NCBI GenBank assembly: GCA_001897305.1
Contig: MKSO01000001.1
Location: 750,001-782,000, forward strand
Length of the DNA stretch: 32,000 bases
Origin: Candidatus Saccharimonadota bacterium
GTDB lineage: Bacteria > Patescibacteriota > Saccharimonadia > Saccharimonadales > Saccharimonadaceae
Reading direction: 5' to 3'
This document shows positions 759 through 14,590 of this stretch, one piece after another (position 1 is the first letter of the stretch; every line of letters begins with the position of its first letter). The position numbers and the translations under genes are program-made. Below the pieces are notes generated by a model that ran no database searches, was not told the DNA's origin, and saw only the letters and a program-made list of their open reading frames with translations.

Positions 759-1610
759 TTACTTTTTCGTACCTTGCAAGGCTTTCACCTGGTACGTCCA
801 ATAAAGTATCCAACCAGCTATGGCAACACTGAAGGCGACCCAATCACCAATCGTCTGAACGTCCGTCGAAGGCTGCCACAAATAGCCCATGACTGCCGAT
901 TCAAATAAATTCATTACATAAACAGCCACGAACAATACCGAAAGTGATACCGCAGACCACGCACTTTTCTGAAGGCTCGACAATTTCGATGTATTAAGCG
1001 TGACATACGATATTAAACCAAACAGTAATGCAGTAAAAGGCGTAAAGAACGTGAAAACAGTGACACTATTAGTGACGATATTATTTATAACGCCAAGTAA
1101 AGGCATAGCAATAATACTCGCCACAAAGACGAGGACGAACGGCCTATATTCAAGTACATCAAGCGTAGCCTGCTTACTTCGCACATGCATACCAGCAATA
1201 ACAGAAGCTACAATCGCCACAAATATACCAGGAAGTACGTTTACAAGCACTAAGCGTGCATTAGTATCTGGGAAAAGCTGCGTAGGAACGGTAATAAATA
1301 CCGTAGTTAAGACCATACACCAATAAGCAAATAGCCCAAAGAGCATGCCATTAAAATGATGGCTCAATTTGCTCTTCGACTTCGCTGAATGATCACCGAT
1401 AATGTACCCAACTACAACAGGTAACAGGGCGCCGATCGTGAGCGAAATCATCGCAACAGCAGCATGTATCTTAATTGAATTCGGATGACTAAGAATAGAA
1501 GTCCACGGTAATGTAGTTGAGAAAAAAACTGAAACTAATAACAGTACAAATAAACTATACCCCGTAACGACAAGTGGTGCATGTATTTTATTGCTTTTTG
1601 TTTTTGCCAT
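759..1610 (-). CDS. polytopic membrane protein of unknown family; paralog of 4777..5637
   Basis: The ORF-track start at 1631 is a TTG lying upstream of the TATAAT box. The ATG at 1608-1610 gives MAKTKSNKIHAPLVVTGY..., colinear with MAKIKTNKIHKPLVVTGY... in the paralog. About 8 hydrophobic spans. Confidence 0.75.
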   Translation of the reverse strand: MAKTKSNKIHAPLVVTGYSLFVLLLVSVFFSTTLPWTSILSHPNSIKIHAAVAMISLTIGALLPVVVGYIIGDHSAKSKSKLSHHFNGMLFGLFAYWCMVLTTVFITVPTQLFPDTNARLVLVNVLPGIFVAIVASVIAGMHVRSKQATLDVLEYRPFVLVFVASIIAMPLLGVINNIVTNSVTVFTFFTPFTALLFGLISYVTLNTSKLSSLQKSAWSAVSLSVLFVAVYVMNLFESAVMGYLWQPSTDVQTIGDWVAFSVAIAGWILYWTYQVKALQGTKK

Positions 1611-1620
1611 ATTTATTTTC

Positions 1621-1648
1621 ATTATAAGCAAAACATAAGCGAATGCAA
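1621..1648 (-). promoter_or_regulatory. sigma70-like promoter for 759..1610
   Basis: On the minus strand: TTGCAT (1643-1648), 16 nt spacer, TATAAT (1621-1626), then 10 nt to the ATG at 1610. Confidence 0.5.
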
Positions 1649-1677
1649 ATTAAGTCGAATAATTAGATGCGTGACAA

Positions 1678-1709
1678 AATTGGTACAGCATTTTGGGTGA
1701 AGTTAGAAC
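1678..1709. repeat. intergenic repeat copy R1
   Basis: Plus strand reads aatTGGTACAGCATTTTGGGTGAAGTTAGAAC. It starts 4 nt past the stop codon (1714-1716) of the upstream minus-strand gene. Confidence 0.85.
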
Positions 1710-1713
1710 CGAG

Positions 1714-2337
1714 TTACTGCTTAACTAAAGAGATCGCAGGCGTGACATCGGCAACTTGACCAAGCTCATTTGCAGTTGGGCACACCCCACTTACTTCAAT
1801 ATATCCGTCGACACCTTCAATCCAACCGTAGCTCATACCTTTCATTGAATTTTCAGAACCAGCGCCACTCAATTCATAGTTATTCATTATTATCGTCTTG
1901 CTACCGCCAAAAATAGTCAGGCTTGCTTCAGACTGCCCAACTTCATTCATACTCAAATCACCTGATGGCATACCCGCATCCTTTTCGGCCTTCAGCTTTG
2001 ATAGGTCTGTTTTGTAGTCGTAATAAGAGAGCGAAACGAAACAATCAGTGCGACCGTCGCCTTCAATTCCCTTGAATGCATGAATACTCGCAACAGGCAA
2101 TTTATCTATAGGAGAATCTCCCTGGTACTTTTCTTCGTTTGCAGATTCTTGAGCATTGTAATTTTTCGCGGCCCACCAATCAGGGGCTTTGTCTTGGCTA
2201 AATACGAATATTGGATCCTTTAAGGTGCTACCTATCAACCCAAGTACCTTCTCGCTATTAAATGCAAAAAGAATACCCGCAACCATAAGCAGTGCGAGTG
2301 GTGTAAATACTAAGATGAGTTTTTGATTTTTTATCAT
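1714..2337 (-). CDS. signal-anchored secreted/surface protein of unknown family; paralog of 4062..4790
   Basis: The ORF-track ATG at 2347-2349 overlaps the TATAAT box (2348-2353). The next in-frame ATG at 2335-2337 (MIKNQKLILVFTPLALLMVAG...) lies 10 nt downstream of the box. Blocks shared with 4062..4790: K(A/F)PDW, LPVA, CFVS(L/V)xY. Alternative start at 2349. Confidence 0.7.
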   Translation of the reverse strand: MIKNQKLILVFTPLALLMVAGILFAFNSEKVLGLIGSTLKDPIFVFSQDKAPDWWAAKNYNAQESANEEKYQGDSPIDKLPVASIHAFKGIEGDGRTDCFVSLSYYDYKTDLSKLKAEKDAGMPSGDLSMNEVGQSEASLTIFGGSKTIIMNNYELSGAGSENSMKGMSYGWIEGVDGYIEVSGVCPTANELGQVADVTPAISLVKQ

Positions 2338-2347
2338 ACTACGCTTC

Positions 2348-2375
2348 ATTATAACTAAATTGTAAGCGTCAGCAA
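2348..2375 (-). promoter_or_regulatory. sigma70-like promoter for 1714..2337
   Basis: On the minus strand: TTGCTG (2370-2375), 16 nt spacer, TATAAT (2348-2353). It is part of a 77-79 nt module that is 85% identical to 5638-5716. Confidence 0.5.
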
Positions 2376-2394
2376 GTTGGCGAAATAATTTAAG

Positions 2395-2437
2395 TGTTAC
2401 ATAGAAATTGGTACAGCACTTTGGGTGAAGTTAGAAC
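2395..2437. repeat. intergenic repeat copy R2 (with left flank)
   Basis: TGTTACATAGAAATTGGTACAGCACTTTGGGTGAAGTTAGAAC. GTGAAGT (2425-2431) can pair with ACTTCAC (2451-2457). Confidence 0.85.
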
Positions 2438-2474
2438 GAAACTCACTTTGACTTCACGGATGGGTGCCGCCGAC

Positions 2475-2930
2475 TCATCTCAATGAGCGTTTGCGAATTA
2501 TTAATCCTACTACGAAGTAGCTAATGAGGAGAGCTGGTATAAAGAAAATAACCAAGAATGCGGCGACGCCCAAGCCCGAATCTGTTGCACTTGAATCCCA
2601 TGTGCCACCCGACATCACCCAGAACAGTCCGTTCGCGAGAAATGGGGCGAGCACAATTAATACTGTCACGACCACTAAGCTTGCTAAGAAGAAGCATGTA
2701 CTCTCCTTTGTTTTCATAGCCAACAAAGGCCACCAGCAAGTAGGCATGAGCACGAGGCCGAGTACTAATAGTCCGTCCTGAACCCATCCAAACTCTTCAA
2801 TGGTGTATTCTCTTTCGAATGTACTACCGCTACTCATCGCACCCACTAAGTTAAGAATTATCGATACGGCAGTTAGAGATAGTGCCCATAGAATCAGGAT
2901 AAGATATGCTTTTCGAATACTTAAAATCAT
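2475..2930 (-). CDS. small 4-span membrane protein, unknown family
   Basis: The 191-aa ORF-track version reads through repeat R3. The ATG at 2928-2930 (MILSIRKAYLILILWAL...) lies 6 nt downstream of an extended -10 box. Confidence 0.6.
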   Translation of the reverse strand: MILSIRKAYLILILWALSLTAVSIILNLVGAMSSGSTFEREYTIEEFGWVQDGLLVLGLVLMPTCWWPLLAMKTKESTCFFLASLVVVTVLIVLAPFLANGLFWVMSGGTWDSSATDSGLGVAAFLVIFFIPALLISYFVVGLIIRKRSLR

Positions 2931-2936
2931 AAACAC

Positions 2937-2945
2937 ATAATACCA
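2937..2945 (-). promoter_or_regulatory. extended -10 element (TGGTATTAT), leaderless start
   Basis: The minus strand reads TGGTATTAT, followed by GTGTTT and then the ATG at 2930. Confidence 0.45.
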
Positions 2946-2980
2946 CAAGCAGTATTTACCAATTTTTGAGTATAATTTTA

Positions 2981-3012
2981 TGTTACATAGAAATTGGTAC
3001 AGAGTGGTGAAT
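2981..3012. repeat. intergenic repeat copy R3 (degenerate)
   Basis: TGTTACATAGAAATTGGTACAGagtGGTGAAtgac. The left flank is intact and the core is shortened and diverged. Confidence 0.6.
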
Positions 3013-3068
3013 GACGTTATATCCGCTATTCGAGCAGACCCGCGTTTCACGCTATAACATGTTTGTAG

Positions 3069-3548
3069 CTAATCTTTCGAGTGACTTTCTATAAAGTCTT
3101 CGATGTACTGAATTGACGTATCGTGGGCAGGAATATGTAATGAGCATGGCCGGAACGATTGGTTTTCGTATTTATCTGGGAACTGTAGCACCAAGTCCTG
3201 CCCGTCCATATAGGACTGGCACACCGCATTCTTATCAAAGTCATACTGAAGAAAATCAGTCTGGTCAATAACTCTTTGAAGCTCAGAAATTTCCTGGCTA
3301 CTCGCCCTGTCATGCCCGTCAAACACTCCATTTTCATATAGCTTATACTCAGACGAACACATGCTATTGTCCGGGCATAAACCACCTTCATAACGAACTA
3401 CCATAACTATGCCGCCATTCGCGACACCCGTGAACCTACTGCTTGCAAACAACCACACGAACAATACAACTAGCACAAAGCTCGCCAAACAAATAGCTAT
3501 TATTATGCCTTTATTTGGTTTTACTTTCTTTTGCTTTTCGTTTGTCAT
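3069..3548 (-). CDS. N-terminally anchored extracytoplasmic protein (4 Cys), unknown family
   Basis: 159 aa. It has a Lys-rich N-terminus, a single TM segment (IIIAICLASFVLVVLFVWLF), and a ~110-aa soluble domain. The ATG at 3546-3548 lies 6 nt downstream of an extended -10 box. Confidence 0.6.
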   Translation of the reverse strand: MTNEKQKKVKPNKGIIIAICLASFVLVVLFVWLFASSRFTGVANGGIVMVVRYEGGLCPDNSMCSSEYKLYENGVFDGHDRASSQEISELQRVIDQTDFLQYDFDKNAVCQSYMDGQDLVLQFPDKYENQSFRPCSLHIPAHDTSIQYIEDFIESHSKD

Positions 3549-3554
3549 GAATTA

Positions 3555-3563
3555 ATAATAGCA
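3555..3563 (-). promoter_or_regulatory. extended -10 element (TGCTATTAT), leaderless start
   Basis: The minus strand reads TGCTATTAT, followed by TAATTC and then the ATG at 3548. Confidence 0.45.
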
Positions 3564-3570
3564 TAGGCAC

Positions 3571-3598
3571 AATGGTACAGCATTTTGGTGAAGTTAAA
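3571..3598. repeat. intergenic repeat copy R4
   Basis: aaTGGTACAGCATTTTGG-TGAAGTTAAA. One deletion and a few substitutions relative to R1/R5. Confidence 0.75.
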
Positions 3599-3616
3599 AT
3601 CAAGCTACTAGCCGCC

Positions 3617-3625
3617 TGATATACT
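3617..3625 (+). promoter_or_regulatory. extended -10 element (TGaTATACT), leaderless start
   Basis: TGATATACT is followed by AATTCGT and then the ATG at 3633. Confidence 0.45.
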
Positions 3626-3632
3626 AATTCGT

Positions 3633-3983
3633 ATGGATTACGGCGCACTCATATCAATAGCTGCATTCTTTGTTGCAATCCAGATCGCCACAAAGACAAA
3701 CGCACATCCGCTATTACCTGCCTCGGTCGCCGTAGCTCTACCCTATATAGTCAACTTAATTCTAAATTACATTCGTGCCGTCGGCTTTGGTCTCCCGATT
3801 TTACCAAATTTATTCACGCTAGCATCAACACTCACGTTTGTAGTGCAGTTTATCCTGAGTATCTACATCTTCAAAAGAATACGCGATGAGGATGATATCC
3901 TGTTAACTCTCTGCTGGGGAGTAGGTGGTGCGATTCTAGTGATTCTAGCGGTGCCGTTACTAGCAAGTTTGATTCATTTTTAA
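3633..3983 (+). CDS. small 3-4-span membrane protein, unknown family
   Basis: 116-aa hydrophobic ORF. It is the only plus-strand gene in the block, yet it is flanked by R4 and R5 in the same orientation as all other copies. Confidence 0.55.
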   Translation: MDYGALISIAAFFVAIQIATKTNAHPLLPASVAVALPYIVNLILNYIRAVGFGLPILPNLFTLASTLTFVVQFILSIYIFKRIRDEDDILLTLCWGVGGAILVILAVPLLASLIHF

Positions 3984-4006
3984 AAAATAATTTCTATGTA
4001 TAACAG

Positions 4007-4039
4007 AATTTGGTACAGCATTTTGGGTGAAGTTAGAAC
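4007..4039. repeat. intergenic repeat copy R5
   Basis: AATTTGGTACAGCATTTTGGGTGAAGTTAGAAC. GTTAGA (4032-4037) can pair with TCTAAC (4069-4074). Confidence 0.85.
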
Positions 4040-4061
4040 GAGGCTCACATCCTCAAAAGAG

Positions 4062-4790
4062 TTAAGGCTCTAACCGAATGGCCGATAGAACCGATATAGT
4101 CTCATCCACCTGGCTTGCCTCCGTGCAAATACTTCGTATGTCGATATGTCCGTTTGAGAGCGAAATATACCCGATGGCGTTACCTTGCTTTATCGTATCA
4201 CTACCCTGGTTCTTGTACTTATAGTTGTGAAGTGTGTATTCCTTTCTGCCTTCCGGTGTGAGCATTGTGAGTGTTTTTGTGCCCACCTCCTGAATGGTCA
4301 TGCCGCCAAAACTATTCACGTTGTCTATAAACTTTACCACTTCTTGTTCGGGATCAACTTTTCGCTCATTATAAAATACCGACACAAAACAGTTCGTATT
4401 CATCGTACTTTGCGCTAACTTCTTACAGGCTGGCTTATCTTCACTCCATGGCTCACATCGTTCTATCAACTTTACACAATTACTCCCCCTCTCGCATTGG
4501 TTGACGTTCATGCCAGCTACGGGTAGGTCGTCTTTACTCCCCTGAAAATCATCGGTAATATCGTCAGGATTCGTGTAGACATTACCAACAGTAGCCCAGT
4601 CAGGGAACTTTTCCGTATCAAATACAAACTTTGGTTTTCCCTGATTTTCAATGCTTGACTTCACATCTGTCGCCACTGTTTTAAGCGTATCTTGAGAAAT
4701 GAACCCAGCAGTCAAGGCAAGGAGCGCCAATGCACTGACTATTATCAGTACAGTCGTCGGCCTCCTTTTCTTACCTCTATTTTTTAGCAC
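4062..4790 (-). CDS. signal-anchored secreted/surface protein; paralog of 1714..2337
   Basis: 242 aa with an N-terminal anchor (TTVLIIVSALALLALTAGF). It overlaps the upstream gene 4777..5637 by 14 nt. Confidence 0.7.
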   Translation of the reverse strand: MLKNRGKKRRPTTVLIIVSALALLALTAGFISQDTLKTVATDVKSSIENQGKPKFVFDTEKFPDWATVGNVYTNPDDITDDFQGSKDDLPVAGMNVNQCERGSNCVKLIERCEPWSEDKPACKKLAQSTMNTNCFVSVFYNERKVDPEQEVVKFIDNVNSFGGMTIQEVGTKTLTMLTPEGRKEYTLHNYKYKNQGSDTIKQGNAIGYISLSNGHIDIRSICTEASQVDETISVLSAIRLEP

Positions 4791-5637
4791 TACTGCTAAC
4801 GCTCAGTGATTTTACTTGTTTAATCCAGTAAATTAACCAAGCTACAAGTGCAGTGACAAACGCCATCCAAGTGCTCGCACTCTGCACCTCGGCGCTTGGC
4901 TGCCATAAGTAACCAACCAGTGCAGTTTCAAACATATTTGCAACGAAAACAAGCAAAAATAACACCGAGACCGCAACCGACGACCACGCAACTTTCTGTA
5001 ACTTGGAAAGTTTACACTTCTTTAAAGTAAGGTAGGTAACACACCCTATCGCAAAAATAATGCTCGGTACGATGAATGTATATACATTCACGCTATTCGT
5101 CATAAAATTATTCACTACAGACGAAAGTGGCATAGCAAGAACACTAGCTGCGAGCACAATAACAAACGGTTTATACTCCAGTACGTCATGCCGGGCTTGC
5201 TTGCTACGTACATGCATGACCCCAAGTGTGGTAGTTATGATTGCTACGAAAATGCTCGGCACAAAATTCATTAGCATTATGCGAATATTATTGTCTGACA
5301 CTAGGTACGCTGGAAAAGATACGAACACGGTAATGAGCGTCATCCACCAGTACGCTAGAAGACCAAAAAGCATGCCGCTAAAATGATGGGTCAGTTTACT
5401 TTTTGACTTAACCGATGTATCGCCAATGAAATATCCGACAAGCACAGGTAGGAGCGCTCCAACCGTCAGTGAAATCATAATAATGGTGACGTTAAGCTTT
5501 ATTGAGTTTGGTTGTGCCAAGATCGTTGCGAATGGAATCGTGGTCGATATAAATACAGACGCCACTAGTAGTCCGAACGATATGTAGCCTGTTACAACGA
5601 GCGGTTTGTGGATTTTATTTGTTTTTATTTTTGCCAT
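4777..5637 (-). CDS. polytopic membrane protein; paralog of 759..1610
   Basis: 286 aa, colinear with 759..1610 along the whole length (for example SKSKL(S/T)HHF(N/S)GMLFGL, MHVRSKQA, VLEY(R/K)PFV, GYLWQPS). Confidence 0.8.
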   Translation of the reverse strand: MAKIKTNKIHKPLVVTGYISFGLLVASVFISTTIPFATILAQPNSIKLNVTIIMISLTVGALLPVLVGYFIGDTSVKSKSKLTHHFSGMLFGLLAYWWMTLITVFVSFPAYLVSDNNIRIMLMNFVPSIFVAIITTTLGVMHVRSKQARHDVLEYKPFVIVLAASVLAMPLSSVVNNFMTNSVNVYTFIVPSIIFAIGCVTYLTLKKCKLSKLQKVAWSSVAVSVLFLLVFVANMFETALVGYLWQPSAEVQSASTWMAFVTALVAWLIYWIKQVKSLSVSSSAKK

Positions 5638-5648
5638 ACTTACGCTTC

Positions 5649-5676
5649 ATTATAAGTAAATTACAAGCATTGGCAA
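5649..5676 (-). promoter_or_regulatory. sigma70-like promoter for 4777..5637
   Basis: On the minus strand: TTGCCA (5671-5676), 16 nt spacer, TATAAT (5649-5654), then 11 nt to the ATG at 5637. Confidence 0.5.
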
Positions 5677-5696
5677 GTTTGTGAAAATAATTTCAA

Positions 5697-5716
5697 TGTT
5701 ACATAGAAATTGGTAC
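5697..5716. repeat. intergenic repeat copy R6 (left flank only, fused to attL)
   Basis: TGTTACATAGAAATTGGTAC is identical to the left part of R2 and R3. After TGGTAC the sequence continues as the tRNA-Arg 3' half instead of the R core. Confidence 0.8.
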
Positions 5717-5755
5717 CCCGGACTGGATTTGAACCAGTGACCTTAGGCTTAGAAG
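5711..5755. repeat. attL: 45-bp direct repeat, a copy of the tRNA-Arg 3' half
   Basis: tggtaccccggactggatttgaaccagtgaccttaggcttagaag is identical at 5711-5755 and 16183-16227. Identity stops on both sides. Confidence 0.9.
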
Positions 5756-5819
5756 ACCTTTTTTGTCATCTATACCGACCAGCTTAACCGAAGTGTACGC
5801 GGTTGTACAAGTTCGACAT

Positions 5820-5854
5820 AGACGGCTTATGATTGGGTCTATAGCCGTCTTTTT
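5820..5854 (+). terminator. hairpin plus T-tract just inside the island's left end
   Basis: AGACGGCT (5820-5827) pairs with AGCCGTCT (5843-5850) around a 15-nt loop, followed by TTTT. It may insulate the tetR operon from read-through. Confidence 0.4.
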
Positions 5855-5896
5855 AAGCCGTTGATTCTTAACAATTAATTAAACAGATAAAAGGTA

Positions 5897-5929
5897 TTGA
5901 CTTAAAAACCTACCATACGGTAGTATGGT
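5897..5929 (+). promoter_or_regulatory. tetR promoter with an overlapping palindromic operator
   Basis: TTGACT (5897-5902), 18 nt spacer, TAGTAT (5921-5926), then 6 nt to the ATG at 5933. A perfect inverted repeat, ACCATAC-ggta-GTATGGT (5912-5929), overlaps the -10 box. Confidence 0.6.
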
Positions 5930-5932
5930 TAT

Positions 5933-6457
5933 ATGATCTTGAAGAATGATATTATAGTGACTGCACAAGAACTTATGAAAAATGGCGATCCAGTTTCTTT
6001 GGACTCAGTTGCACGCAAAATAGGATTAACTAAAGCCGGTTTAGTACATCACTTCCCTACCAAAAAGGCACTTATGATTAGTCTTGTAGATGACGTTGCA
6101 AGGCGTTGGAGCAAAATGCTTGAAGAGGCTCCATCTAGTTCAAGCCCTGAGGGGCGCATGATGACTTACTTAAATTATGCACTGTCAGACGATATAGATT
6201 CCTCCGACTTCGCATTCATGACTGACTATAAGCTAAAGGACGAACTATACACTAGATGGGCTGAGTTGATTGATAGATGGTTCGACTTCAACGATATTAA
6301 AGACACAAGTAGAAGGAATGCATTAACTACCGTGCGACTCATTGCAGACGGTGCATGGTTCGACAGGGGCTTAGGAATGCTAAGTACTAGCGAGGTTGAA
6401 CGTAAATCAATTATATCTACGTCTGAAGTGATACTAAATAATGGAGTAAATAAATGA
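5933..6457 (+). CDS. TetR/AcrR-family transcriptional regulator
   Basis: The N-terminal HTH reads SLDSVARKIGLTKAGLVHHFPTKKAL. The stop overlaps the next start (ATGA). Confidence 0.85.
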   Translation: MILKNDIIVTAQELMKNGDPVSLDSVARKIGLTKAGLVHHFPTKKALMISLVDDVARRWSKMLEEAPSSSSPEGRMMTYLNYALSDDIDSSDFAFMTDYKLKDELYTRWAELIDRWFDFNDIKDTSRRNALTTVRLIADGAWFDRGLGMLSTSEVERKSIISTSEVILNNGVNK

Positions 6458-6801
6458 AACAATGGATTTTTTTGATAGGCGCTATCATATCGGAAGTGGC
6501 TGCCACACTATCTCTCAAAGCTGGAATGGATAATCCCCTCTTTTACATCGTAGTTGCAATTGGATATGGGGCTGCTTTCGTTTTCTTAACAAAAGCACTT
6601 AAACTTGGTATGGCTCTTGGTGTGGCTTATGGTATCTGGGGTGCTAGTGGTGTTGCTCTAACTGCCGTTCTATCAAACCTTATATTCAAAGAACCCCTAA
6701 CTACAATTATGATAGCGGGTATTATTGTAATCATAGTCGGTGTACTTATGATTGAATTAGGCTCACAAGCTGCAAATAAAAAAGAAGCGGGGAACGCATA
6801 A
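6454..6801 (+). CDS. SMR-family small multidrug efflux subunit (paired type)
   Basis: 115 aa with 4 TM segments. The conserved membrane Glu lies in IGAIISEVAATLSLK, and the GVAYGIWGASGVALTA motif is present. Confidence 0.85.
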   Translation: MKQWIFLIGAIISEVAATLSLKAGMDNPLFYIVVAIGYGAAFVFLTKALKLGMALGVAYGIWGASGVALTAVLSNLIFKEPLTTIMIAGIIVIIVGVLMIELGSQAANKKEAGNA

Positions 6802-7127
6802 TGAGCTGGCTATTTCTTATAGGTGCAATCATTTTTGAAGTCTCAGCAACACTCTCGTTACGTATGGCCAGTACAGGGAAACGTCGTTGGTGGATAGCCG
6901 TTGCAGGAGCATATATGATAGCATTTACTATGCTCATACTGACACTCTCCAACGGTATGGCTCTTGGTGTGGCTTATGGTATCTGGGCGGCATCAGGAGT
7001 TGCCCTCACAGCTATATTTAGCAAAATTATTTTCAAAGAACACCTTACATTAGTTATGTCTATCGGTATCCTTGTTGTAATTGGTGGTGTGCTTATGATC
7101 GAACTTGGAAGCGGATCTATACATTAG
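6801..7127 (+). CDS. SMR-family small multidrug efflux subunit (second half of the pair)
   Basis: 108 aa, with IGAIIFEVSATLSLR and GVAYGIWAASGVALTA. The start overlaps the previous stop (TAATG). Confidence 0.85.
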   Translation: MSWLFLIGAIIFEVSATLSLRMASTGKRRWWIAVAGAYMIAFTMLILTLSNGMALGVAYGIWAASGVALTAIFSKIIFKEHLTLVMSIGILVVIGGVLMIELGSGSIH

Positions 7128-7212
7128 TAAGACTCGATCAATTAGCATCACATAGTCATACAAGACCTACTTTCTACCAAAAAACGGGATTGGTAGATGG
7201 AACGTAAAAGTA

Positions 7213-7218
7213 TACAAT
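7213..7218 (+). promoter_or_regulatory. -10 box (TACAAT) for the 753-aa gene, leaderless spacing
   Basis: TACAAT is followed by 7 nt (AAAACAA) and then the ATG at 7226. Confidence 0.35.
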
Positions 7219-7225
7219 AAAACAA

Positions 7226-9487
7226 ATGCTATTCTTACGCAAACCATTTATGTTTATACGAAGGTCGCTTTTTCGATTACGCATCTTAATTTCACGTTGG
7301 TTTAAAAAGACTCTAACACCAAGTTTTATTGCAGTAGTTATAGGAATATTATCGACCTATATTCTGCTAGTAATTAATGGCGATGTATTCGAATCCGCTC
7401 CACCTAAAGACCCGTCCTTCTTTTTTGGCTCAGCGGCATTTGTCGGTGGAGCGCTCGCTATCATCGTGACTCTAAACACATTACTTTTACAAAATGCTCT
7501 CGATAAATTGCCCGCTCGGTCATTCAAGCGAGTTGGTGCGAGTGGAAAACTTTATTCAATGTATCTTGCTATGGCTGTAATTACTTTATCCCTATTTACC
7601 CTCGGAATTTCTTACGTAGATACAGCTAATATTGCAAGAACTTATCTCCTCAGGTATGGCATGGGTCTGAATGTTTGGGCGCTTATAATCATCTTTTTAT
7701 ATGCGCAGTCAATTTCTTCTCTTCTTGACCCTACCGCGCAGCTCAAGCAGAAGACGAAACAAATCAAAAAGAAAATTGACAGTACGGAGAGGTTAATTAA
7801 GCGTGCCGTAAAAGCAATGTCCGGAGATGACACCCCAAAAGCTGCCCTAGAGGCAACCGTAAGGAATCAAATGCAACCAACTATGAAGGACATACTTAAT
7901 GACCTTGATGATTTAAGCGGTATGTATTTCAGATTAATTGAACGAGGCGATACGGAACTAGCGATGACATGTATTGCAGCTATAACAGGGTCAGTTTCAT
8001 ATGTATATGGAACACGTAAAGATAACGCATTGGCTATGCCATCGGGTCAATGGGGTTTCTTCGTACCAAAGAGTGACCTAGCAGACTTTACTAACAAGGT
8101 TGATGAAATTATGATGCGGATGTGGACTAATGCTTTGCAGACAAATGACCTGGAATCAATCAGGGAAATAATCAATGGCTACATTATAATGGTCAACTCT
8201 TCAGTTACTATGAAGCATGTCAATTACGATCGTGATAATCCACTCTTCAGCCATACATGGGGTGGGTTTAAAAGGATGTTTGATAAGGGATTCGTCAGCA
8301 GGAACGAGGAAGCACTTTTTCAACTTAGTGGAGCTGTAAGCTCTATAGCAAAGTATTTCTATCTCCATTCAAACAGAAGCTCTCTGAATTATTTGCACTT
8401 CAAGGGTATTTTAGATACACACTATAAGTTATACGCTCACGGCGCTGTCAACCGTGATACTACGCTTATGACACAGGCTAGCGACGGCTTCATGGGGATT
8501 CTAGGTGTCGTTTTAGTAAAAGATATGGGCGACAAACAGATAGATGAGGTGATGACTGAAAAGTATTCTGAATATGTTAGATTAGCCAATACCCCAGCGC
8601 TTCAGAGGCTGCTCAATGCTGGAGATGAGATATTCACGCAAGAACAACTCATACAAGGTTTAATTATGGGTGTTGCCGCGGTCGATACTACAATTGAAAA
8701 AGTCCAGCTTTTTATTCGCGCTTCTGGAATACTTATTGATTCATTAATCTCAGCCGCCACGTCTAACAACGTAAGCACCGTACGGATTAATTTTGATAGG
8801 TATGTTATGGTTTCAGGCGAAGCTGCTTTGCGTCTCCTTTCTAATCCCCCAATTGACTTAGGTGATGTTATCAAGAAGGATTTGAATGGTTTGTTAATTA
8901 AGATAATAAAACTTCATGAGGTTGCTCTACTAGCAAATGACTTCGCATCAGATGATATAAGCGAGGATTATTCTCAAAAATTATCTATGATTGGTCAAAC
9001 GGCATCTTCTTTTAACGACTCCTCACACGCAATTGAATCTATTTCATCGTTAATGAAGATGGCAAGCTGGTTACTAGAAAATCATTTAAACTCCGGGGCA
9101 GGGGCTACTCATGTAATTTATCGTATGGTGCGCTATGCTGCATTTATTGCAGGTTATTCGCATAGCCGACGGCGATTCCTCGTATCGAGGCAATATAAAG
9201 CATCTTTACATACACTTGAATCTCGTTGGTTGCAGCTTACGTTTCCTAATGGTATACCTCAAGGTTCCGTAGCTCAATCACCTAACCTTTTCAGGTATAT
9301 GTTCGATGATTTATTACATGGTTTTGGACATTCGGGTATTCCGGGTTTATTGGATTATCCCGAGGATATTTTCAGTAACCAAGTCTCATATGAACAAATT
9401 GACACTTTCAATAATTACTTATGGCGTGGGATACCTGTCGCGGATCCTATCAATCATCCCTTCACTCCTACCGTTTATTACTACTAG
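7226..9487 (+). CDS. 753-aa protein with an N-terminal multi-span membrane domain and a ~580-aa helical soluble region; no family recognised
   Basis: Long uninterrupted ORF with about 4 hydrophobic spans in the first 170 aa. I could not recognise any nucleotide-binding, nuclease or peptidase motif. Confidence 0.7.
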   Translation: MLFLRKPFMFIRRSLFRLRILISRWFKKTLTPSFIAVVIGILSTYILLVINGDVFESAPPKDPSFFFGSAAFVGGALAIIVTLNTLLLQNALDKLPARSFKRVGASGKLYSMYLAMAVITLSLFTLGISYVDTANIARTYLLRYGMGLNVWALIIIFLYAQSISSLLDPTAQLKQKTKQIKKKIDSTERLIKRAVKAMSGDDTPKAALEATVRNQMQPTMKDILNDLDDLSGMYFRLIERGDTELAMTCIAAITGSVSYVYGTRKDNALAMPSGQWGFFVPKSDLADFTNKVDEIMMRMWTNALQTNDLESIREIINGYIIMVNSSVTMKHVNYDRDNPLFSHTWGGFKRMFDKGFVSRNEEALFQLSGAVSSIAKYFYLHSNRSSLNYLHFKGILDTHYKLYAHGAVNRDTTLMTQASDGFMGILGVVLVKDMGDKQIDEVMTEKYSEYVRLANTPALQRLLNAGDEIFTQEQLIQGLIMGVAAVDTTIEKVQLFIRASGILIDSLISAATSNNVSTVRINFDRYVMVSGEAALRLLSNPPIDLGDVIKKDLNGLLIKIIKLHEVALLANDFASDDISEDYSQKLSMIGQTASSFNDSSHAIESISSLMKMASWLLENHLNSGAGATHVIYRMVRYAAFIAGYSHSRRRFLVSRQYKASLHTLESRWLQLTFPNGIPQGSVAQSPNLFRYMFDDLLHGFGHSGIPGLLDYPEDIFSNQVSYEQIDTFNNYLWRGIPVADPINHPFTPTVYYY

Positions 9488-9516
9488 CAAGTGATTTCCT
9501 TTCCCGAAATGTATTA

Positions 9517-10773
9517 CTATGCGCGTTTTAATAGTAGTTCAAAGTATTCCGTTCCACCGAATGGAATCTTTTGCTTGATAACTTTTTTGCCTTCGATTGT
9601 GTTCGCCGAATAAACAGTGAAAGCACCGTAAAAGTCGTTAATCTCATCAACCGCCTTAGTTAAGTCTCCTACCTTCGAAATATCTTCGAACATACTCATC
9701 TGACTAGCCTTAGACGGCTCAACACCATAGCAATAAATGCCCATTGTCTGAACGTCAGCACCACTCGGGCGTTGATTGAAAAGTTCAAGCGCTCGGCGGT
9801 ATATCTCTTGATTGGTGTAGAAGCTCGATTTATGCATACGCTTCGCATACCACGACTCACCATTACGAAACCTAGCCCATACACAAACCCCACGCGCTTC
9901 AACATTCTTATACCTCACTTTCATACCAGTTGTCTCGCATAAAAAGCTTAGGTACGAACGCAGAAGGTCATCTTTATTTGTAGGATCGCGCAATACCCAT
10001 TGGCGACCTATCATTCCGAGCTTAGTATCGAAATCATCTATTTCATGACCCCTTAAACGCCGGTACCAGTACGTTCCAGTAATACTGTTGAATACCCTCT
10101 TTTTGAGCATGTACTCGTCCGCTGCTAAAAACTGCAAAGGATTCATAATACCATAAGAATTCAACCGCGCTTCATTACGTTCAGCTATGCCAGTGAGATC
10201 GAGCAATGTACGTTCAGCGTAAAATTTCTTTAAGTTCTTGTGATCGATTACATCTAAACCATCTGGCTTGTGCCAACCGGCAGCTTGCTTCGCCAAGAAA
10301 ACATTCATACTAATACCAATATTGATTTTCATCCAATCGCCTATTTCGTCGCGTACCCTCTGTTTAATTTCATAACCGATATCGACTAATGAGCGACCAT
10401 TAAGCGTCGGCTCCATTCCATGAAAATCTATGACTCCTTCGTCAATTGACTTCATCCATGTTTTTGGTGAGTAATCCTTCATTATACGTACCAGTTTCTG
10501 ATACACCTGATGATACTTTGGTGCGTCTGTTTCGAGCATAATAAAATCTTTGCATATCGCTCTCGCGTCACTTAAGCGCATACCGACTTTAATACCCAAG
10601 GCTTTTGCCTCATAAGATGCAGCAATGACACAGCATTCTTTGGATATACGATTAGTGACACCCATAGGTTTACCGCGCAGTGTAGGGTGAGCTTGTTGCT
10701 CTGCTGTAGCAAAGGCACTGTTAAGGTCAATGAACATTATCATCGGCTTTTCTTTGTTAATATCGTTATACAT
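9517..10773 (-). CDS. Y-family (UmuC-like) translesion DNA polymerase
   Basis: Motif I FIDLNSAFATAEQ (D-x-N as in UmuC CDVNAFYASCE) and the catalytic SIDEGVID motif are present. 418 aa. Start could also be the internal MIMFID Met. Confidence 0.85.
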   Translation of the reverse strand: MYNDINKEKPMIMFIDLNSAFATAEQQAHPTLRGKPMGVTNRISKECCVIAASYEAKALGIKVGMRLSDARAICKDFIMLETDAPKYHQVYQKLVRIMKDYSPKTWMKSIDEGVIDFHGMEPTLNGRSLVDIGYEIKQRVRDEIGDWMKINIGISMNVFLAKQAAGWHKPDGLDVIDHKNLKKFYAERTLLDLTGIAERNEARLNSYGIMNPLQFLAADEYMLKKRVFNSITGTYWYRRLRGHEIDDFDTKLGMIGRQWVLRDPTNKDDLLRSYLSFLCETTGMKVRYKNVEARGVCVWARFRNGESWYAKRMHKSSFYTNQEIYRRALELFNQRPSGADVQTMGIYCYGVEPSKASQMSMFEDISKVGDLTKAVDEINDFYGAFTVYSANTIEGKKVIKQKIPFGGTEYFELLLKRA

Positions 10774-11041
10774 ATTCGCCCCCCATTACGTACACTAACG
10801 TCCATATCAACCGCTCAGCATCCAGTTCGATACGATAATCATTAACACCGTCACTCATGTTGAAAGCGTGAATCATTCTCTTACCTTTTTCGGTCGGATG
10901 CCTCATACCAAGTTGCGTAAATATAATTTCCCGTCCTCGATAGACCATCTTCCATGGGACACACTTAAACTGGTCACCTGCATGACCCCGGAAGATTGGT
11001 ACGATGTCTACCACTTCGTTGATTTCTTCCATAGGATTCAT
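10766..11041 (-). CDS. 91-aa protein of unknown family, translationally coupled to the polymerase
   Basis: Its stop overlaps the polymerase start by 8 nt. There is no S24-peptidase (UmuD) Ser/Lys signature. Confidence 0.55.
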   Translation of the reverse strand: MNPMEEINEVVDIVPIFRGHAGDQFKCVPWKMVYRGREIIFTQLGMRHPTEKGKRMIHAFNMSDGVNDYRIELDAERLIWTLVYVMGGEYV

Positions 11042-11047
11042 AATTGC

Positions 11048-11197
11048 CTACTTTAAAAAACTAAAGCGACGAATCTGCTTTGCGCGTTTAAATGCACGGA
11101 TACGCTCTTCGAGTAACGCATCAAGCTTTACTGGTGAAGTTGAACCACGCTGTGTTTCGATATAAGTAATTAATTCTTTTTCTTGAGCTGTCTTCAT
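11048..11197 (-). CDS. 49-aa basic helical protein (not in the ORF track), first gene of the polymerase operon
   Basis: The minus strand reads ATGAAGACAGCT...AAGTAG, giving MKTAQEKELITYIETQRGSTSPVKLDALLEERIRAFKRAKQIRRFSFLK*. GGAGA lies 4 nt upstream of the ATG. The stop is 6 nt before the next start. Confidence 0.45.
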   Translation of the reverse strand: MKTAQEKELITYIETQRGSTSPVKLDALLEERIRAFKRAKQIRRFSFLK

Positions 11198-11417
11198 ATA
11201 ATCTCCATGCCTTAATAAACAAAAAACAACTAAAACGAACTGCTTAGCTGTAACGGGTTTTATTGTATGGAGCTATCCGGTGGTATTTGCAGACCGTTAT
11301 CTGTTGATACACGACGGGGAGCTGATGATTATATAAGACTTCCAGGGACGCTTTGCAAATGCCAGTGTGTATGTCGTCTACTCGTATTATATACCTGTTC
11401 GGCGTTATAATAAAAGC

Positions 11418-12065
11418 ATGTGCGGTAGATATACACTATATACAACCGATGAACTTGAAGACCGATATCGAGTTGAAGTTAGTGACGCTATTAGAGCAAA
11501 CTACAACGTCGCCCCGTCGCAAACTATGCCAGTTATTACAGCGAATGGCTTAGAAATGATGCGCTGGGGACTTATACCACCTTGGGCAAAGGACGAGAAG
11601 ATAGGATATAAATTAATTAATGCTCGAAGCGAAACTATCTTTGAAAAGCCAATGTGGAAGAAGCCAGTCATGCAACGAAGGTGTTTAATTCCTGCTAATG
11701 GGTTTTATGAGTGGAAAAAGGAAGATGACGGTAAACACCCGCAGTATATTCACTTAAGAGATGAAGCCCTGTTCTCTTTTGCAGGTATCTGGGAAACATG
11801 GAATCACGACGGCAAGGAATGGCACACTTACTCTATATTAACGACCTCGCCCAATAAAGAAATGACATCAATCCATGATCGAATGCCGGTAATACTTCAC
11901 AAAGACGATGAAGCCCAGTGGCTTGAAGCTGATACAGAAGAAGATATAGCCGTATTACTTCAACCATACACGAACGGCAAACTAGAAACGTTTGAAGTTG
12001 GTCGAGAAGTGAATACAGTCAAAGTTAATGACGAGACGCTAATTGGACCAATTAATTCAAAGTAA
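11418..12065 (+). CDS. SOS-response-associated peptidase (SRAP/YedK-type abasic-site processing protein)
   Basis: The true start is MCGRY (Cys2 nucleophile) at 11418; the ORF-track N-terminal 17 aa are spurious. YNVAPSQ, INARSET and IHDRMPVIL motifs are present. Confidence 0.9.
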   Translation: MCGRYTLYTTDELEDRYRVEVSDAIRANYNVAPSQTMPVITANGLEMMRWGLIPPWAKDEKIGYKLINARSETIFEKPMWKKPVMQRRCLIPANGFYEWKKEDDGKHPQYIHLRDEALFSFAGIWETWNHDGKEWHTYSILTTSPNKEMTSIHDRMPVILHKDDEAQWLEADTEEDIAVLLQPYTNGKLETFEVGREVNTVKVNDETLIGPINSK

Positions 12066-12090
12066 AACCCCGAGCTCTTTCGGGGTTTAT
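12066..12090 (+). terminator. rho-independent-like terminator after the SRAP gene
   Basis: AACCCCGA (12066-12073) pairs with TCGGGGTT (12080-12087) around a 6-nt loop, followed by a short T-rich tail. Confidence 0.55.
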
Positions 12091-12215
12091 ATGTCAGGCA
12101 CGTTAACGCGTATTCGTATAGTAACAATAAAACATTAAAAAGTTATTAACTATAAAACTAGATTAATCGTATTTACTCGAATCAACCTGAATAATCCGAG
12201 TAATAACCGAATATA

Positions 12216-12503
12216 TCAGTATTTATCTGTATCTAATGCAGAAAGATGGGACAGCAGTTTTTGCGTAACCCCCTGTTCAAACATGGACCACCACAATCCT
12301 TCAACTATGCGGTTCCTATACATCAGCCCAAACAAGATGCTAAGCACTTCATCTTTTGAAAGCGAGGGATAGCCCCCCTTGTCTATTGTTCGTGCTAGTA
12401 AATCGTCCCAGTCAGCAATAACAGGATAAATAAGTCGGTCTTCTGGGTCGTATGTCACCCATAGAAAATCTTTTACATCCTGCGCGTATTGCCTACTCAG
12501 CAC
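12216..12503 (-). CDS. 95-aa protein, unknown family
   Basis: The GTG start (12501-12503) overlaps the TAG of the upstream gene by 1 nt. The C-terminal half has the pattern EVLSILFGLMYRNRIVEGLWWSMFEQG..KLL, which I cannot name confidently. Confidence 0.5.
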   Translation of the reverse strand: MLSRQYAQDVKDFLWVTYDPEDRLIYPVIADWDDLLARTIDKGGYPSLSKDEVLSILFGLMYRNRIVEGLWWSMFEQGVTQKLLSHLSALDTDKY

Positions 12504-12979
12504 TAAAACTTATTCCCACAGTTTAAACACACTCTTTTAATTTCAGATACAATCTTGTCGGCAGTTACAAGTTTGTTCATGTTGGCAAGCTGCCAAATTG
12601 TCGCTGCTCCGGAATGTCTATTGGTAGTTTCCGAAACGGCAGTAAGATTGGTGCTACCACATTTAGGGCATTGTCCGTTAGACTCCCTGTCTTTCTGTAT
12701 TTGCGCAGCTTCTAACTGTTCGCTTTTAGTTGCCTGTACAGCTTCACGCTTCTCTCGCTTGATGGCAATCCATTGCTCCCAGTTGTCCTTATGGCTTCGT
12801 ATAACAGCTATGTCTACGAGCCAAGGAATAATGAATAGAAAAAAGAACAAACAGATTTTTAAAGTACCCATTCCCTTATCGCCCATATAAAACCTATCCA
12901 CGCCAAGCCATCCAAGAAACATGGAATACTTCAGTGCTGTATCATAGTTAATCGTTTGAGTGTTCTGTGAGATGTTCAT
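12503..12979 (-). CDS. TM2-domain membrane protein with a C-terminal zinc ribbon
   Basis: The ATG at 12977-12979 gives MNISQNT... The TM2-like segment reads FLGWLGVDRFYMGDKGMGTLKI...WLVD. CPKCGS...CLNCGNKF forms a Cys4 ribbon. The extra 50 aa in the ORF track have no support. Confidence 0.6.
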   Translation of the reverse strand: MNISQNTQTINYDTALKYSMFLGWLGVDRFYMGDKGMGTLKICLFFFLFIIPWLVDIAVIRSHKDNWEQWIAIKREKREAVQATKSEQLEAAQIQKDRESNGQCPKCGSTNLTAVSETTNRHSGAATIWQLANMNKLVTADKIVSEIKRVCLNCGNKF

Positions 12980-13284
12980 GCCGCGTTGCGTACCTTCCAT
13001 TAATTGGTAATCCGGTAGCAACAAAAAACCGACTACCGGTTGAGCTTGCACTCCACGACCCTTTCGAGTCGCGACTACGCGAATAGTTACCGATAGCCGG
13101 ATTAATATTCGCGTAGATTTGATGACCATACCTTCCCTTGCGGGGGCTCTAGATCGCGTAGCAATTTGAGCTACTTGCAGTCAATTATAGGGGTAAAGTC
13201 CTGAAAAAGAAACTCATATAGGAGCCTCTGTGTGAAAGCGAAAAACGGCGACGGCAGTTATGGTCGTTTTATACTTGATAACCC

Positions 13285-13304
13285 CTTAGAACGGCTTAGA
13301 ACGC
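13285..13304 (+). repeat. tandem 10-bp direct repeat CTTAGAACG(G/C) x2
   Basis: cttagaacgg cttagaacgc, located 58 nt upstream of the 13362 start. It shares TTAGAACG with the right end of the R-repeat core. Confidence 0.6.
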
Positions 13305-13361
13305 GCCACAAAAGCCAATGTACTACCACTTATTACAACTATGTAAGATAATGGTCTTAAT

Positions 13362-14114
13362 ATGAACGAAGACACTCACTACTGGCTAACTCGAGTCGCT
13401 GTAAAACTAAACGAGTTGTTTCTCAGTGGCGTTGATTTTACACTTCATGACGGACAGTGGCTTTTCGATTGGAACGACGAATTAAGCCTAGAGAAAAACT
13501 TGGATAAAGTTCGCGCCGAAGATAAAGCTCTTACTATATTTACTCAAAAAGGCGTTATTAAAAGCACACGTAAAAGGAACTTCTATCGCGAACAGCAACT
13601 AGAATCTTTTGCAGACCCACTCAGAGGTCATCTTATCTTTGGGAATTGGGAGGAGTTTGACGCACCAAAACGAGAGTATGAATATTTACGCTATGTTGAC
13701 GACGTGAATTGGGATAAATTCATTGATTTTTGTGAAGAATACAATTTGAATTACAAGCAAGATGGAATATTAGCAACTCTCGAAATTACCAATCAAGCTC
13801 CTGTAATAAATATTGGTAATGACACTTATATATTGAAAACATTACAAAGCGGTTCCACCTACGACATTATTCAGGTAGCGTACGACCATATAGATATAAG
13901 GTTTGGCTTAAGCGAGTTACGTAAATGGTCTAATAAGTCGTTTACTGCGCAGAAAAGATTTACGGACATATTCCGAACAGGCAAAAATGAATTCAGTAAG
14001 AATAGCGTGTTGAGCCCATTCGCCGATATAACTGCTCAGACATTTATGCTCAAAAAAAATGCCCAGTTGTCACCTACTCAAATCAAAAATATACAAGAAT
14101 CTAGTACCAATTAG
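13362..14114 (+). CDS. 250-aa protein, unknown family
   Basis: Clean ORF with no recognisable motifs. Confidence 0.55.
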   Translation: MNEDTHYWLTRVAVKLNELFLSGVDFTLHDGQWLFDWNDELSLEKNLDKVRAEDKALTIFTQKGVIKSTRKRNFYREQQLESFADPLRGHLIFGNWEEFDAPKREYEYLRYVDDVNWDKFIDFCEEYNLNYKQDGILATLEITNQAPVINIGNDTYILKTLQSGSTYDIIQVAYDHIDIRFGLSELRKWSNKSFTAQKRFTDIFRTGKNEFSKNSVLSPFADITAQTFMLKKNAQLSPTQIKNIQESSTN

Positions 14115-14257
14115 TACCGCTTCACCTAAGTAGATGTACCGATGTCGTACATCCGTTAAGTTATTTTACTTCTCAAATTACACTAAATGTTATGACGCAC
14201 AACGAGTTAGCAAAGTCATCAAGCGTCAGACTTTGTGTACTCAAAAGGAGAACCAAA

Positions 14258-14590
14258 ATGGAAAACGAATACGAAGTAGAGGCTCAGGTACATAAGCGCG
14301 TAGGTGCTGGATATCGAGTTAAGGCTTTAGTTCACGACATCGGACTATATATTAACGGAATGATGGTATTCCCGCCGAACGATGAACATGACTGGTCTGT
14401 ATATCCCCCCTTATTAGGAAGAGCTGGTCGCGGGGTATATAGATATACAGTTGAGTTCAATAAACATGCTCCGCTTTGGGAAGAAATTCACGAGGCTTGT
14501 ATCGAGGCTGTTAAGTCCGAGCTGGGAATTAGTGATACCGATGACGACATATCCTATGCACAAGAATCGGATGATAAAGAGTTCATGTAA
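14258..14590 (+). CDS. 110-aa protein, unknown family
   Basis: AAAGGAG lies 7 nt upstream of the ATG at 14258 (MENEYEVEAQ...). The ORF-track start at 14192 lacks such support. Confidence 0.55.
   Translation: MENEYEVEAQVHKRVGAGYRVKALVHDIGLYINGMMVFPPNDEHDWSVYPPLLGRAGRGVYRYTVEFNKHAPLWEEIHEACIEAVKSELGISDTDDDISYAQESDDKEFM

Follow-up and report, generated by a model that had tools for sequence, protein, structure and literature searches.

How does a single ~30-nt repeat come to lie, always in the same orientation, between the genes of a cassette block beside a tRNA gene? The repeat in question occurs next to the tRNA-Arg(UCU) gene in a 32-kb stretch of DNA (43.8% G+C) from a Saccharibacteria population; we refer to this whole analyzed stretch as the window. 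A preliminary description of the same DNA had seen in the repeat a shared boundary element, which might be a recombination or secondary attachment site, a scar of serial integrations, or a regulator-binding or RNA-processing element. Comparison with relatives leads us to think it probable that integrative elements of a Saccharibacteria clade use the 3′ end of the tRNA-Arg(UCU) gene as their target, that the repeat represents the half-site (P′ arm) which these elements contribute to the attachment (att) site, and that the array is a row of integration scars. As far as sequence can tell, a large serine recombinase (LSR) is the most likely enzyme of this element family.

The 30-mer TTGGTACAGCAYTTTGGGTGAAGTTAGAAC is present in three exact copies on the plus strand (1680–1709, 2408–2437, and 4010–4039), with none expected from 100 shuffles. 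Three imperfect copies complete the tally: one lacks a single nt, one is decayed, and one consists of the flank only. The repeat is therefore real; the positions first given for the copies were broadly right, if off by 1–3 nt. The left flank TGTTACATAGAAATTGGTAC, exact at 2395, 2981, and 5697, is a near-palindrome (AATTTnnnTGTTACAnnnAAATT). All copies are on the plus strand, the tRNA-Arg gene and most other genes on the minus strand, and relative to the tRNA the copies keep one fixed orientation whatever the direction of the genes; the plus-strand gene at 3633–3983 does sit between two copies in the common orientation, as had been pointed out. A copy had been placed in every intergenic gap between non-homologous genes. 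This holds for the gaps that separate A1, B1, C, D, E, and B2 (Table 1) but not for the gap between Ham1 and A1, which has none, and B2 and A2 leave no gap because they overlap. Read in the direction of the tRNA, the order is tRNA-Arg, a 10.4-kb island, a tRNA 3′ fragment with the palindrome, A2–B2, junction 5, E (on the opposite strand), junction 4, D, junction 3, C, junction 2, B1, junction 1, A1, and Ham1.

The flank-only copy explains itself by its surroundings. At 5711, its flank switches into a copy of the tRNA-Arg 3′ part, as the preliminary description had seen, but this copy measures 49 nt and not 45 (5711–5759 corresponds to 16183–16231 at 98% identity). It had been taken for a special case, a repeat fused to the att site of an island, and is simply the old attB (flank, TGGTAC, and tRNA 3′ end), displaced. 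The tyrosine-integrase island that lies between it and the tRNA duplicates 49 nt of the tRNA; the repeat has only TGGTAC in common with the tRNA. This island is outside the repeat system and accounts for the sixth copy. The further remark that the repeat core occupies the place of the tRNA 3′ end was to the point, in that core and tRNA are alternative right half-sites of one crossover sequence. Decayed fragments of the tRNA-Arg 3′ end were ruled out as the origin of the repeats: there is no collinear similarity beyond TGGTAC and a shifted GAACC, and the cores are conserved across genomes, with a lineage-specific middle.

We found the repeat to be confined to one kind of locus. A scan of JGI metagenomes for the element returned four contigs of the same strain, all covering this locus, and one different relative (L006), with no other genomic position. 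The conserved MurA-HTH gene served as the anchor for collecting the tRNA-Arg locus from relatives (the ATP-grasp gene to the right of the tRNA was dropped as an anchor for further arrays, being kept in only two relatives), and a comparison set of 351 kb of loci was scanned with a nucleotide hidden Markov model (HMM; nhmmer, E < 0.01). All 42 matches lay in arrays downstream of target tRNAs, in one orientation relative to the tRNA; as the same locus recurs among the loci, they amount to about 22 distinct junctions. The genome-wide scatter expected of a generic repeat was seen neither in the JGI scan nor in the 351 kb of loci, which held no copies at unrelated intergenic sites or in both orientations of the kind known from repetitive extragenic palindromes (REP), miniature inverted-repeat transposable elements (MITE), or DNA uptake sequences. 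The consensus is TGGTAC-AgCattnTggnngAAGTTAGAAc, with a middle that varies by lineage.

Wider searches returned little. With one genome per GTDB species, the core pattern had a single match, in a Bacteroidales metagenome-assembled genome, with a weak HMM score that we took as chance; the clade is apparently not among the GTDB species representatives. In IMG/VR, the pattern matched one phage-contig family only, within a coding region and with poor HMM scores (again treated as chance), and there were no matches for the reconstructed circular junction or for the end of the LSR island described below. The island had no match in the phage collection or the plasmid collection either, and in the searchable literature we found no account of such a tRNA-linked repeat and LSR system in Saccharibacteria.

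Relatives carry comparable arrays with other genes in them. In L006, tRNA-Arg(UCU) is followed by five cores in the same relative orientation, which separate wholly different genes (among them those for an S51 peptidase, a DnaJ-domain protein, and a nucleotidyltransferase). L033 has four further junctions, dividing NUDIX, His_Phos, HIT, and NUDIX genes. Arrays of recombinase-less units at the tRNA were seen in the window, L006, L017, L032, and L033. The interval from MurA to tRNA-Arg is hypervariable, with unrelated gene sets in genomes whose MurA genes are 96%–99% identical; several of these intervals contain cores (L016, L017, and L022), and the MurA–tRNA-Arg loci of L018 and L024 (90% identity) have none. 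The palindromic flank precedes not only cores but also the tRNA end in the window, L006, and L033, and a second flank, of the hairpin type (AAAAAAGTAGAACCGATTAACAGTTCTACTTT...), lies before a core in L006 and before the tRNA end in L017. Left flanks are thus interchangeable between cores and tRNA. The L006 array also includes a segment of 62% G+C (7440–8125) in a genome of 45% G+C; it has a 204-aa open reading frame (ORF) without a Pfam match and its own GC-rich terminator, and has the look of DNA recently acquired from a high-GC organism, perhaps from an actinobacterium that hosts these epibionts.

Variation at the boundaries between relatives, which the preliminary description had proposed to look for, allowed us to locate the crossover. 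A mosaic relative (L022/L029) is 99.3% identical to the window up to base 1709 and 99.99% identical to L016/L028 from the first core base on, and the backbones of L022 and L016 are only 78%–83% identical. At the mosaic junction, the left flank is of the window type (GTGACAAAAT), and the L016 type takes in the variable middle, the right arm, and all sequence past them, so that the homology switch falls within TGGTACAGCA of the junction 1 copy. For the single-gene cassettes of the window, this breakpoint in the first core is the sole boundary evidence. At the tRNA, the flank is constant and only the sequence after TGGTAC differs. The short identity that contains the crossover, and at which the element ends exactly, is TGGTAC at both ends of an island found in six host backgrounds. 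Taken at the level of sequence, these alignments place strand exchange within TGGTAC, the hexamer common to the element site and the complement of the tRNA terminus (...GTACCA). That breakpoints between relatives lie within TGGTAC(AGCA) supports the earlier options of an attachment site and a serial-integration scar. Inverted-repeat half-sites around the crossover are clear at L006 11252–11304 only; the reconstructed island attP shows them weakly, and most flanks do not show them at all.

The island just mentioned points to the enzyme. It is 9.05 kb long and is present in six hosts (L028, L029, L030, L032, L033, and L035) at an identity of at least 99.85%, even though some of the host backbones are only 63%–70% identical and the tRNA-Arg sequences differ. 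Its only recombinase is a 534–538-aa LSR that contains Resolvase, Recombinase, and Zn_ribbon domains and matches SPbeta integrase structures over its full length. In all six hosts, the left end reads [unrelated host flank]-TGGTAC-AGCAGAATGTGCGAAGTTAGAAC and the right end ...TTTCCATCT-TGGTAC-[host-specific tRNA-Arg], or, written out into the tRNA-Arg 3′ end, ...GAAATATTTCCATCT-TGGTAC-CCCGG... The LSR gene lies at the element end beside the att site (L028–L035 and L037–L039), and its frame crosses the right junction (at about 11560–11617 in L028, L032, and L035) such that the last 7–11 codons come from the complementary strand of the host tRNA-Arg; because the frame runs into the tRNA, the LSR C-terminus varies by host (534, 536, or 538 aa). 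In the circular form, the frame would end within the core instead (...WYSRMCEVRTMII, followed by the stop). Joining the two island ends gives a putative attP of the form flank-TGGTAC-core, which makes the core the element-borne half-site. A DUF4145 unit lying between two cores was co-transferred with the LSR island in the six hosts. One host, L030, has in addition a partial duplicate of the tRNA 5′ part directly upstream of tRNA-Arg (11653–11745; ...GAGCTACCGGGGCACG occurs twice, about 95 nt apart), absent in the island's other hosts.

The serine-integrase reading can be checked in two independent ways. At tRNA-Trp(CCA), an island arranged in the same way is headed by an LSR with 43% identity to that of the 9.05-kb island. 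The distal end of this tRNA-Trp island reads hairpin-TTGGCAG-AGCATATTGTTTGAAATTAGAACC and carries a homologous arm, and its hexamer is TGGCAG instead of TGGTAC, the complement of the tRNA-Trp 3′ end (TGGCAGGGG); the hexamer, in other words, co-varies with the target tRNA. The distal motif of the arm (GTTAGAACC) resembles the T-arm of the tRNA (TTTGAACC) but with an extra 5 bp between it and the crossover: counted on from the hexamer, GAAC begins at +20 in 12 of the 18 listed junctions, those that keep the motif (11 at tRNA-Arg and one at tRNA-Trp), and at +15, within the T-arm, in three tRNA-Arg variants and tRNA-Trp. In serine integrases, attP and attB carry the same zinc-ribbon-domain (ZD) motif, 5 bp nearer the center in attB (PMC3783163). 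We regard an LSR as the likely enzyme because the arm motif mimics the T-arm but lies 5 bp further out, as attP does relative to attB. The shift is seen for right half-sites and is not demonstrable for left half-sites; its exactness in two systems is strong, though still indirect, backing for a serine integrase. The tRNA-Trp island (L037) also encodes HamA and a DEAD helicase (Hachiman-type defense, 2946–5892), with a gene for an OLD-like nuclease just outside. An 18-nt tRNA-Trp 3′ fragment adjoins its distal core (1140–1157) and is probably a scar of another, older integration.

These observations suggest how such arrays may have formed. The attB would be [AT-rich palindrome downstream of the tRNA]-TGGTAC-[tRNA], and recombination would depend on TGGTAC and on the arm motif GTTAGAAC, with TTTCCATCT-TGGTAC-AGCAGAATG as the junction of the island circle. 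Each integration would leave a core beside the old flank and a new element end beside the tRNA, such that the tRNA-distal junction would become [old tRNA downstream flank, usually the AT-rich palindrome]-TGGTAC-[AGC-N9-GAAGTTAGAAC], which is the repeated unit. If the recombinase-bearing part were then lost, or excised via the inner junction, a small unit would stay behind and the tRNA end would be free again; excision of the composite via the outer junction would carry neighboring units to new hosts, the DUF4145 unit being a case. Repeated rounds would stack small cassettes, each with its scar on the tRNA-distal side. In the window, the last event would have been the unrelated tyrosine-integrase island, whose 49-nt tRNA duplication pushed the intact attB to its present place. 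On the comparison with relatives, the window cassettes are best read, by analogy, as a tandem accretion of small recombinase-less elements, like composite islands of the staphylococcal cassette chromosome (SCC) or cis-mobilizable elements (CIMEs). We infer, and do not observe, an LSR origin for the junctions of the window itself, the growth of the array in successive events, and their order.

Several observations weigh against this account. There is no LSR gene in the window (the scope of the search in the source organism), nor in the arrays of L006 and L017. Canonical serine integrases recombine attP with attB only and not like sites with each other (PMC3783163), and a run of attL-like junctions split by single genes needs extra steps, for instance a relaxed choice of site as in Ccr or excision between alternate attL sites. 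Left half-sites are poorly conserved. The three identical copies in the window are unexpected for old, independent scars, and the array is the same in all 24 contigs read of the window's own population, which gives no sign of ongoing turnover there. Finally, orthologous His_Phos and HIT genes occur in the same order in two distant genomes (L033, 855–1906; L035, 1497–2478), with a palindrome-TGGTAC-core unit between them in L033 and only 4 nt and no junction in L035. Not every junction, then, need mark an imported gene, and no explanation so far covers this case cleanly.

Because of these misfits, namely the missing local LSR, the like sites, the poor left halves, the invariant array, and the L033/L035 pair, we keep two other readings alongside. 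The array might be an active, integron-like platform in which [core-gene-palindrome] units excise as circles, joined as palindrome-TGGTAC-core, and re-insert at the tRNA end or at junctions with a recombinase acting in trans, the junctions being working sites. Such a platform would suit the single-gene units (0.44–1.7 kb) with their own promoters, the two recurrent end types (palindrome in the window, L006, L032, and L033; hairpin in L006 and L017), the wholly different gene content between MurA and tRNA-Arg where MurA is 96%–99% identical, the DUF4145 cassette that travels with the LSR island, and the good conservation of the cores, identical copies within one genome included. We nevertheless judge it unlikely: no single cassette was found at two different array positions, the circular junction was not observed, the 24 contigs show one invariant array, recombination between like sites is not canonical for serine integrases (PMC3783163), and the His_Phos–HIT order is kept in distant genomes with and without a junction. 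We entertain somewhat more readily, if still tentatively, the idea that the palindrome-TGGTAC-core junctions are working sites of an LSR-driven gene-capture platform on the tRNA 3′ end, with cassettes excised, exchanged, and stacked in trans by the LSRs of visiting islands, and that the attP arm evolved as a 5-bp-shifted mimic of the T-arm, retargeted from Arg to Trp via the hexamer alone. The second reading that we keep makes the ~60-nt palindrome-TGGTAC-core unit itself a mobile miniature element, inserting between resident genes near the tRNA, so that the genes would not be imports. In its favor is the unit between His_Phos and HIT in L033, where the L035 orthologs are 4 nt apart without it. 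We consider it very unlikely, given that copies are limited to one locus and one orientation, that window junctions 1 and 4 lack the palindrome, and that flank and core part at TGGTAC both in the mosaic genomes and at the tRNA and therefore do not behave as one unit.

The two readings that dispense with a dedicated recombination site fare worse. A terminator, insulator, operator, or 3′-untranslated-region RNA motif controlling the cassette genes would fit the place of the repeat, which in most gaps has a stop codon on one side and the promoter of the neighboring gene on the other, and the palindrome, together with the ATTATTTT that follows it, looks like a weak AT-rich terminator, found directly after the tRNA as well; scars could also have been co-opted. 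Yet at the Rfam gathering threshold only tRNAs and a LOOT RNA matched in the window, and no family matched at the repeat. Folds of the repeat RNA were no more stable than shuffled sequence, with one relative excepted (z-scores from −1.7 to +1.4 in most copies). The pairing that the preliminary description saw between the right end GAAGTTAGAAC and the 3′ end of the neighboring gene spans 5, 7, and 6 nt in the three window copies (p = 0.39, 0.02, and 0.11 against shuffled flanks), which is not beyond chance. On these statistics, an RNA motif or terminator was ruled out, and the earlier option of a regulator-binding or RNA-processing element lost its footing. The orientation, moreover, tracks the tRNA and not the genes, the core occurs in two divergent promoter gaps without an upstream gene end (window junction 4 and L006 10397), its distance to promoters varies, and regulation does not predict a hexamer that co-varies with the target tRNA. 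We consider a role in gene expression highly improbable, though the palindrome may secondarily have been co-opted as terminator or promoter context. Nor do we give much credence to the idea that, with no dedicated recombinase at work, the sequence is a short anchor at which DNA taken up by natural transformation recombines, be it by homologous or by homology-facilitated illegitimate recombination. The organisms do encode ComEC and type IV pilins, and the L022 mosaic could come from one long anchor on the tRNA side plus microhomology in TGGTACAGCA. An anchor does not explain why six independent host flanks meet the island at the same base with only 6 nt of identity, or why the island LSR sits exactly at the other junction, and it leaves unexplained the existence of the sequence, its fixed orientation, the 5-bp motif shift, and the tRNA-Trp counterpart. 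Six junctions with 6-nt identity, the fixed orientation, the co-variation of the hexamer, and the motif shift make both a regulatory or RNA role and simple homologous or illegitimate recombination unlikely as the primary function. A dif/Xer-like site and a sigma-54 promoter were also considered and dropped, as the arms do not form inverted repeats and the repeat lies antisense to most genes.

Read as att-site arms and integration scars of tRNA-targeting serine-recombinase elements, the repeats would fall within known biology. One close parallel is with SCC composite islands, in which Ccr large serine recombinases use the 3′ end of orfX/rlmH, integration site sequences form direct repeats, and ccr-less pseudo-SCC elements occur (PMC3900703). 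Here too, an LSR inserts at the 3′ end of a conserved gene, and tandem elements and remnants, with or without a recombinase, are bounded by short direct repeats in one orientation. The target is a tRNA 3′ end, whereas in SCC it is a protein gene, and units are mostly single genes of about 0.5–1.7 kb in place of 10–60 kb; the repeat consists of a 23-nt element arm and a 6-nt overlap, the host is a member of the Saccharibacteria, and the LSR is likened to Ccr by role alone. Integrative and conjugative elements (ICEs) and CIMEs grow through site-specific accretion along with cis-mobilization, and the composite can move as one (PMC5704250). As in the CIMEs related to ICESt1 and ICESt3 of Streptococcus thermophilus, decayed elements would have kept their att sites and lost the integrase, and the movement of composites resembles that of the DUF4145 cassette with the LSR island in six hosts. 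CIMEs classically involve tyrosine integrases and conjugative transfer, in contrast to the serine recombinase here, and the cassettes here lie between like-type junctions, with no clear attL/attR pair. With phage serine-integrase sites (the Listeria A118/LI integrase, SPbeta, phiC31, and Bxb1), the islands have in common the short common core, the recombinase gene beside attP, and a ZD motif in both sites that lies 5 bp inward in attB (GAAC at +15 against +20 here); the SPbeta integrase is also the one that the island LSR matches over its full length. They differ from the phage sites in that left half-sites are barely conserved and the right half of attB is a tRNA acceptor and T-arm. We identified no recombination directionality factor and no phage genes in the LSR islands.

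Integrons share the one-gene units, the boundary repeats in one orientation whatever the gene direction, and a fixed entry point, here the tRNA end; they differ in that the cassettes here carry their own promoters and the crossover falls in a tRNA-derived hexamer. The array is not headed by an IntI with attI and Pc, the only tyrosine recombinase belonging to the separate island with the 49-nt att site, and no attC-type palindrome (RYYYAAC ... GTTRRRY) was found in the repeat, where no such pair of boxes occurs in the correct order and the folds are no better than those of shuffled sequence. Islands that use tyrosine integrases at tRNA genes, such as the 10.4-kb island of the window, resemble the repeat system in using the same end of the same target gene and in tandem occupancy. 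New in our case are the host phylum, a tRNA 3′ end as the target of a serine integrase whose attP arm mimics the T-arm, and the single-gene grain of the arrays.

If correct, the att-site account explains the hypervariable MurA–tRNA-Arg locus of Saccharibacteria, where MurA genes 96%–99% identical flank entirely different genes. The comparison also documents that a 9-kb island has spread horizontally, and very recently, among hosts with only 63%–80% identity in backbone DNA; little is understood of gene flow in this phylum. The att-site account would also provide a natural example, with two targets (tRNA-Arg and tRNA-Trp), of the ZD-motif rule in which the motif is the tRNA T-arm. For bacteria that are hard to engineer, a candidate integration tool would combine the LSR (P0232), an attP that spans TGGTAC over about 50 bp and includes the GAAGTTAGAAC arm, and, as attB, the 3′ end of tRNA-Arg(UCU). 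The alternative in which the junctions are working sites would, if true, amount to a functional analog of the integron in the ultra-small genomes of Saccharibacteria.

Table 1. Repeat junctions, cassette genes, and neighboring features of the window
Feature	Position	Strand	Description
Junction 1	1681–1709	+	TGGTAC and element-side arm AGCATTTTGGGTGAAGTTAGAAC; left flank (A1 promoter side) non-palindromic
Junction 2	2385–2437	+	Palindromic flank (2385–2408), then TGGTAC and arm (2409–2437)
Junction 3	2972–3023	+	Palindromic flank, TGGTAC, decayed arm AGAGTGGTGAATGACGTTATATC (decayed copy 2995–3023; nhmmer E = 0.022)
Junction 4	3573–3600	+	TGGTAC and arm with 1-nt deletion, AAAAT replacing AGAAC; no palindromic flank; between divergent D and E
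Junction 5	3985–4039	+	Palindromic flank variant AATTTCTATGTATAACAGAATT, TGGTAC, arm; between convergent E and B2
Former attB ("sixth copy")	5685–5759	+	Palindromic flank (5685–5710), TGGTAC and 43 more nt of tRNA-Arg 3′ part
Cassette block	759–5637	− (E on +)	Small membrane or secreted proteins without Pfam families
A1	759–1631	−	Cassette-block gene
B1	1714–2349	−	Cassette-block gene
C	2475–2930	−	Cassette-block gene
D	3069–3548	−	Cassette-block gene
E	3633–3983	+	Cassette-block gene
B2	4062–4790	−	Cassette-block gene
A2	4777–5637	−	Cassette-block gene
Later island	5760–16182		10.4 kb with own tyrosine integrase; cargo TetR, two SMR genes, 753-aa protein, Y-family polymerase, SRAP, LOOT RNA
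HTH_17 excisionase-like gene	14743–15024		In the tyrosine-integrase island
Tyrosine integrase of later island	14948–16204	+	Phage_integrase and SAM-like N domain
tRNA-Arg(UCU)	16183–16259	−	3′ end ...GGGGTACCA gives TGGTAC; T-arm gives GAACC motif of host-side half-site

Among the cassette genes, A1 and A2 are diverged paralogs (about 65% DNA identity); B1 and B2 look paralogous from common protein motifs, with no DNA match detected. A2 and B2 overlap as an operon, and B1 and A1 follow in reverse order with a junction between them. Sigma-70-like promoters lie upstream of A1 and A2, and the upstream sequences of the other genes also fit promoters of their own, consistent with the earlier suggestion of independently promoted cassettes.

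Beside the tRNA lies a gene for an ATP-grasp protein in the window and a cupin-like gene in L006. The later island shares a cargo module (TetR, two SMR genes, a Y-family polymerase, and a 91-aa gene) with the LSR island of relatives (window 5904–11379; L029 5109–8255; only 74%–78% identity). Their integration modules differ despite this common cargo, which looks like a swap of recombinase type on one backbone at the same tRNA. In the window, the two SMR (Multi_Drug_Res) genes of the island (6607–6761 and 6954–7108) lie side by side and are tandem paralogs with 71% DNA identity, and the LOOT RNA (RF03000; 13042–13155, minus strand; 49.7 bits against a gathering threshold of 46.4) overlaps the start of an ORF with a TM2-domain product (12503–13129).

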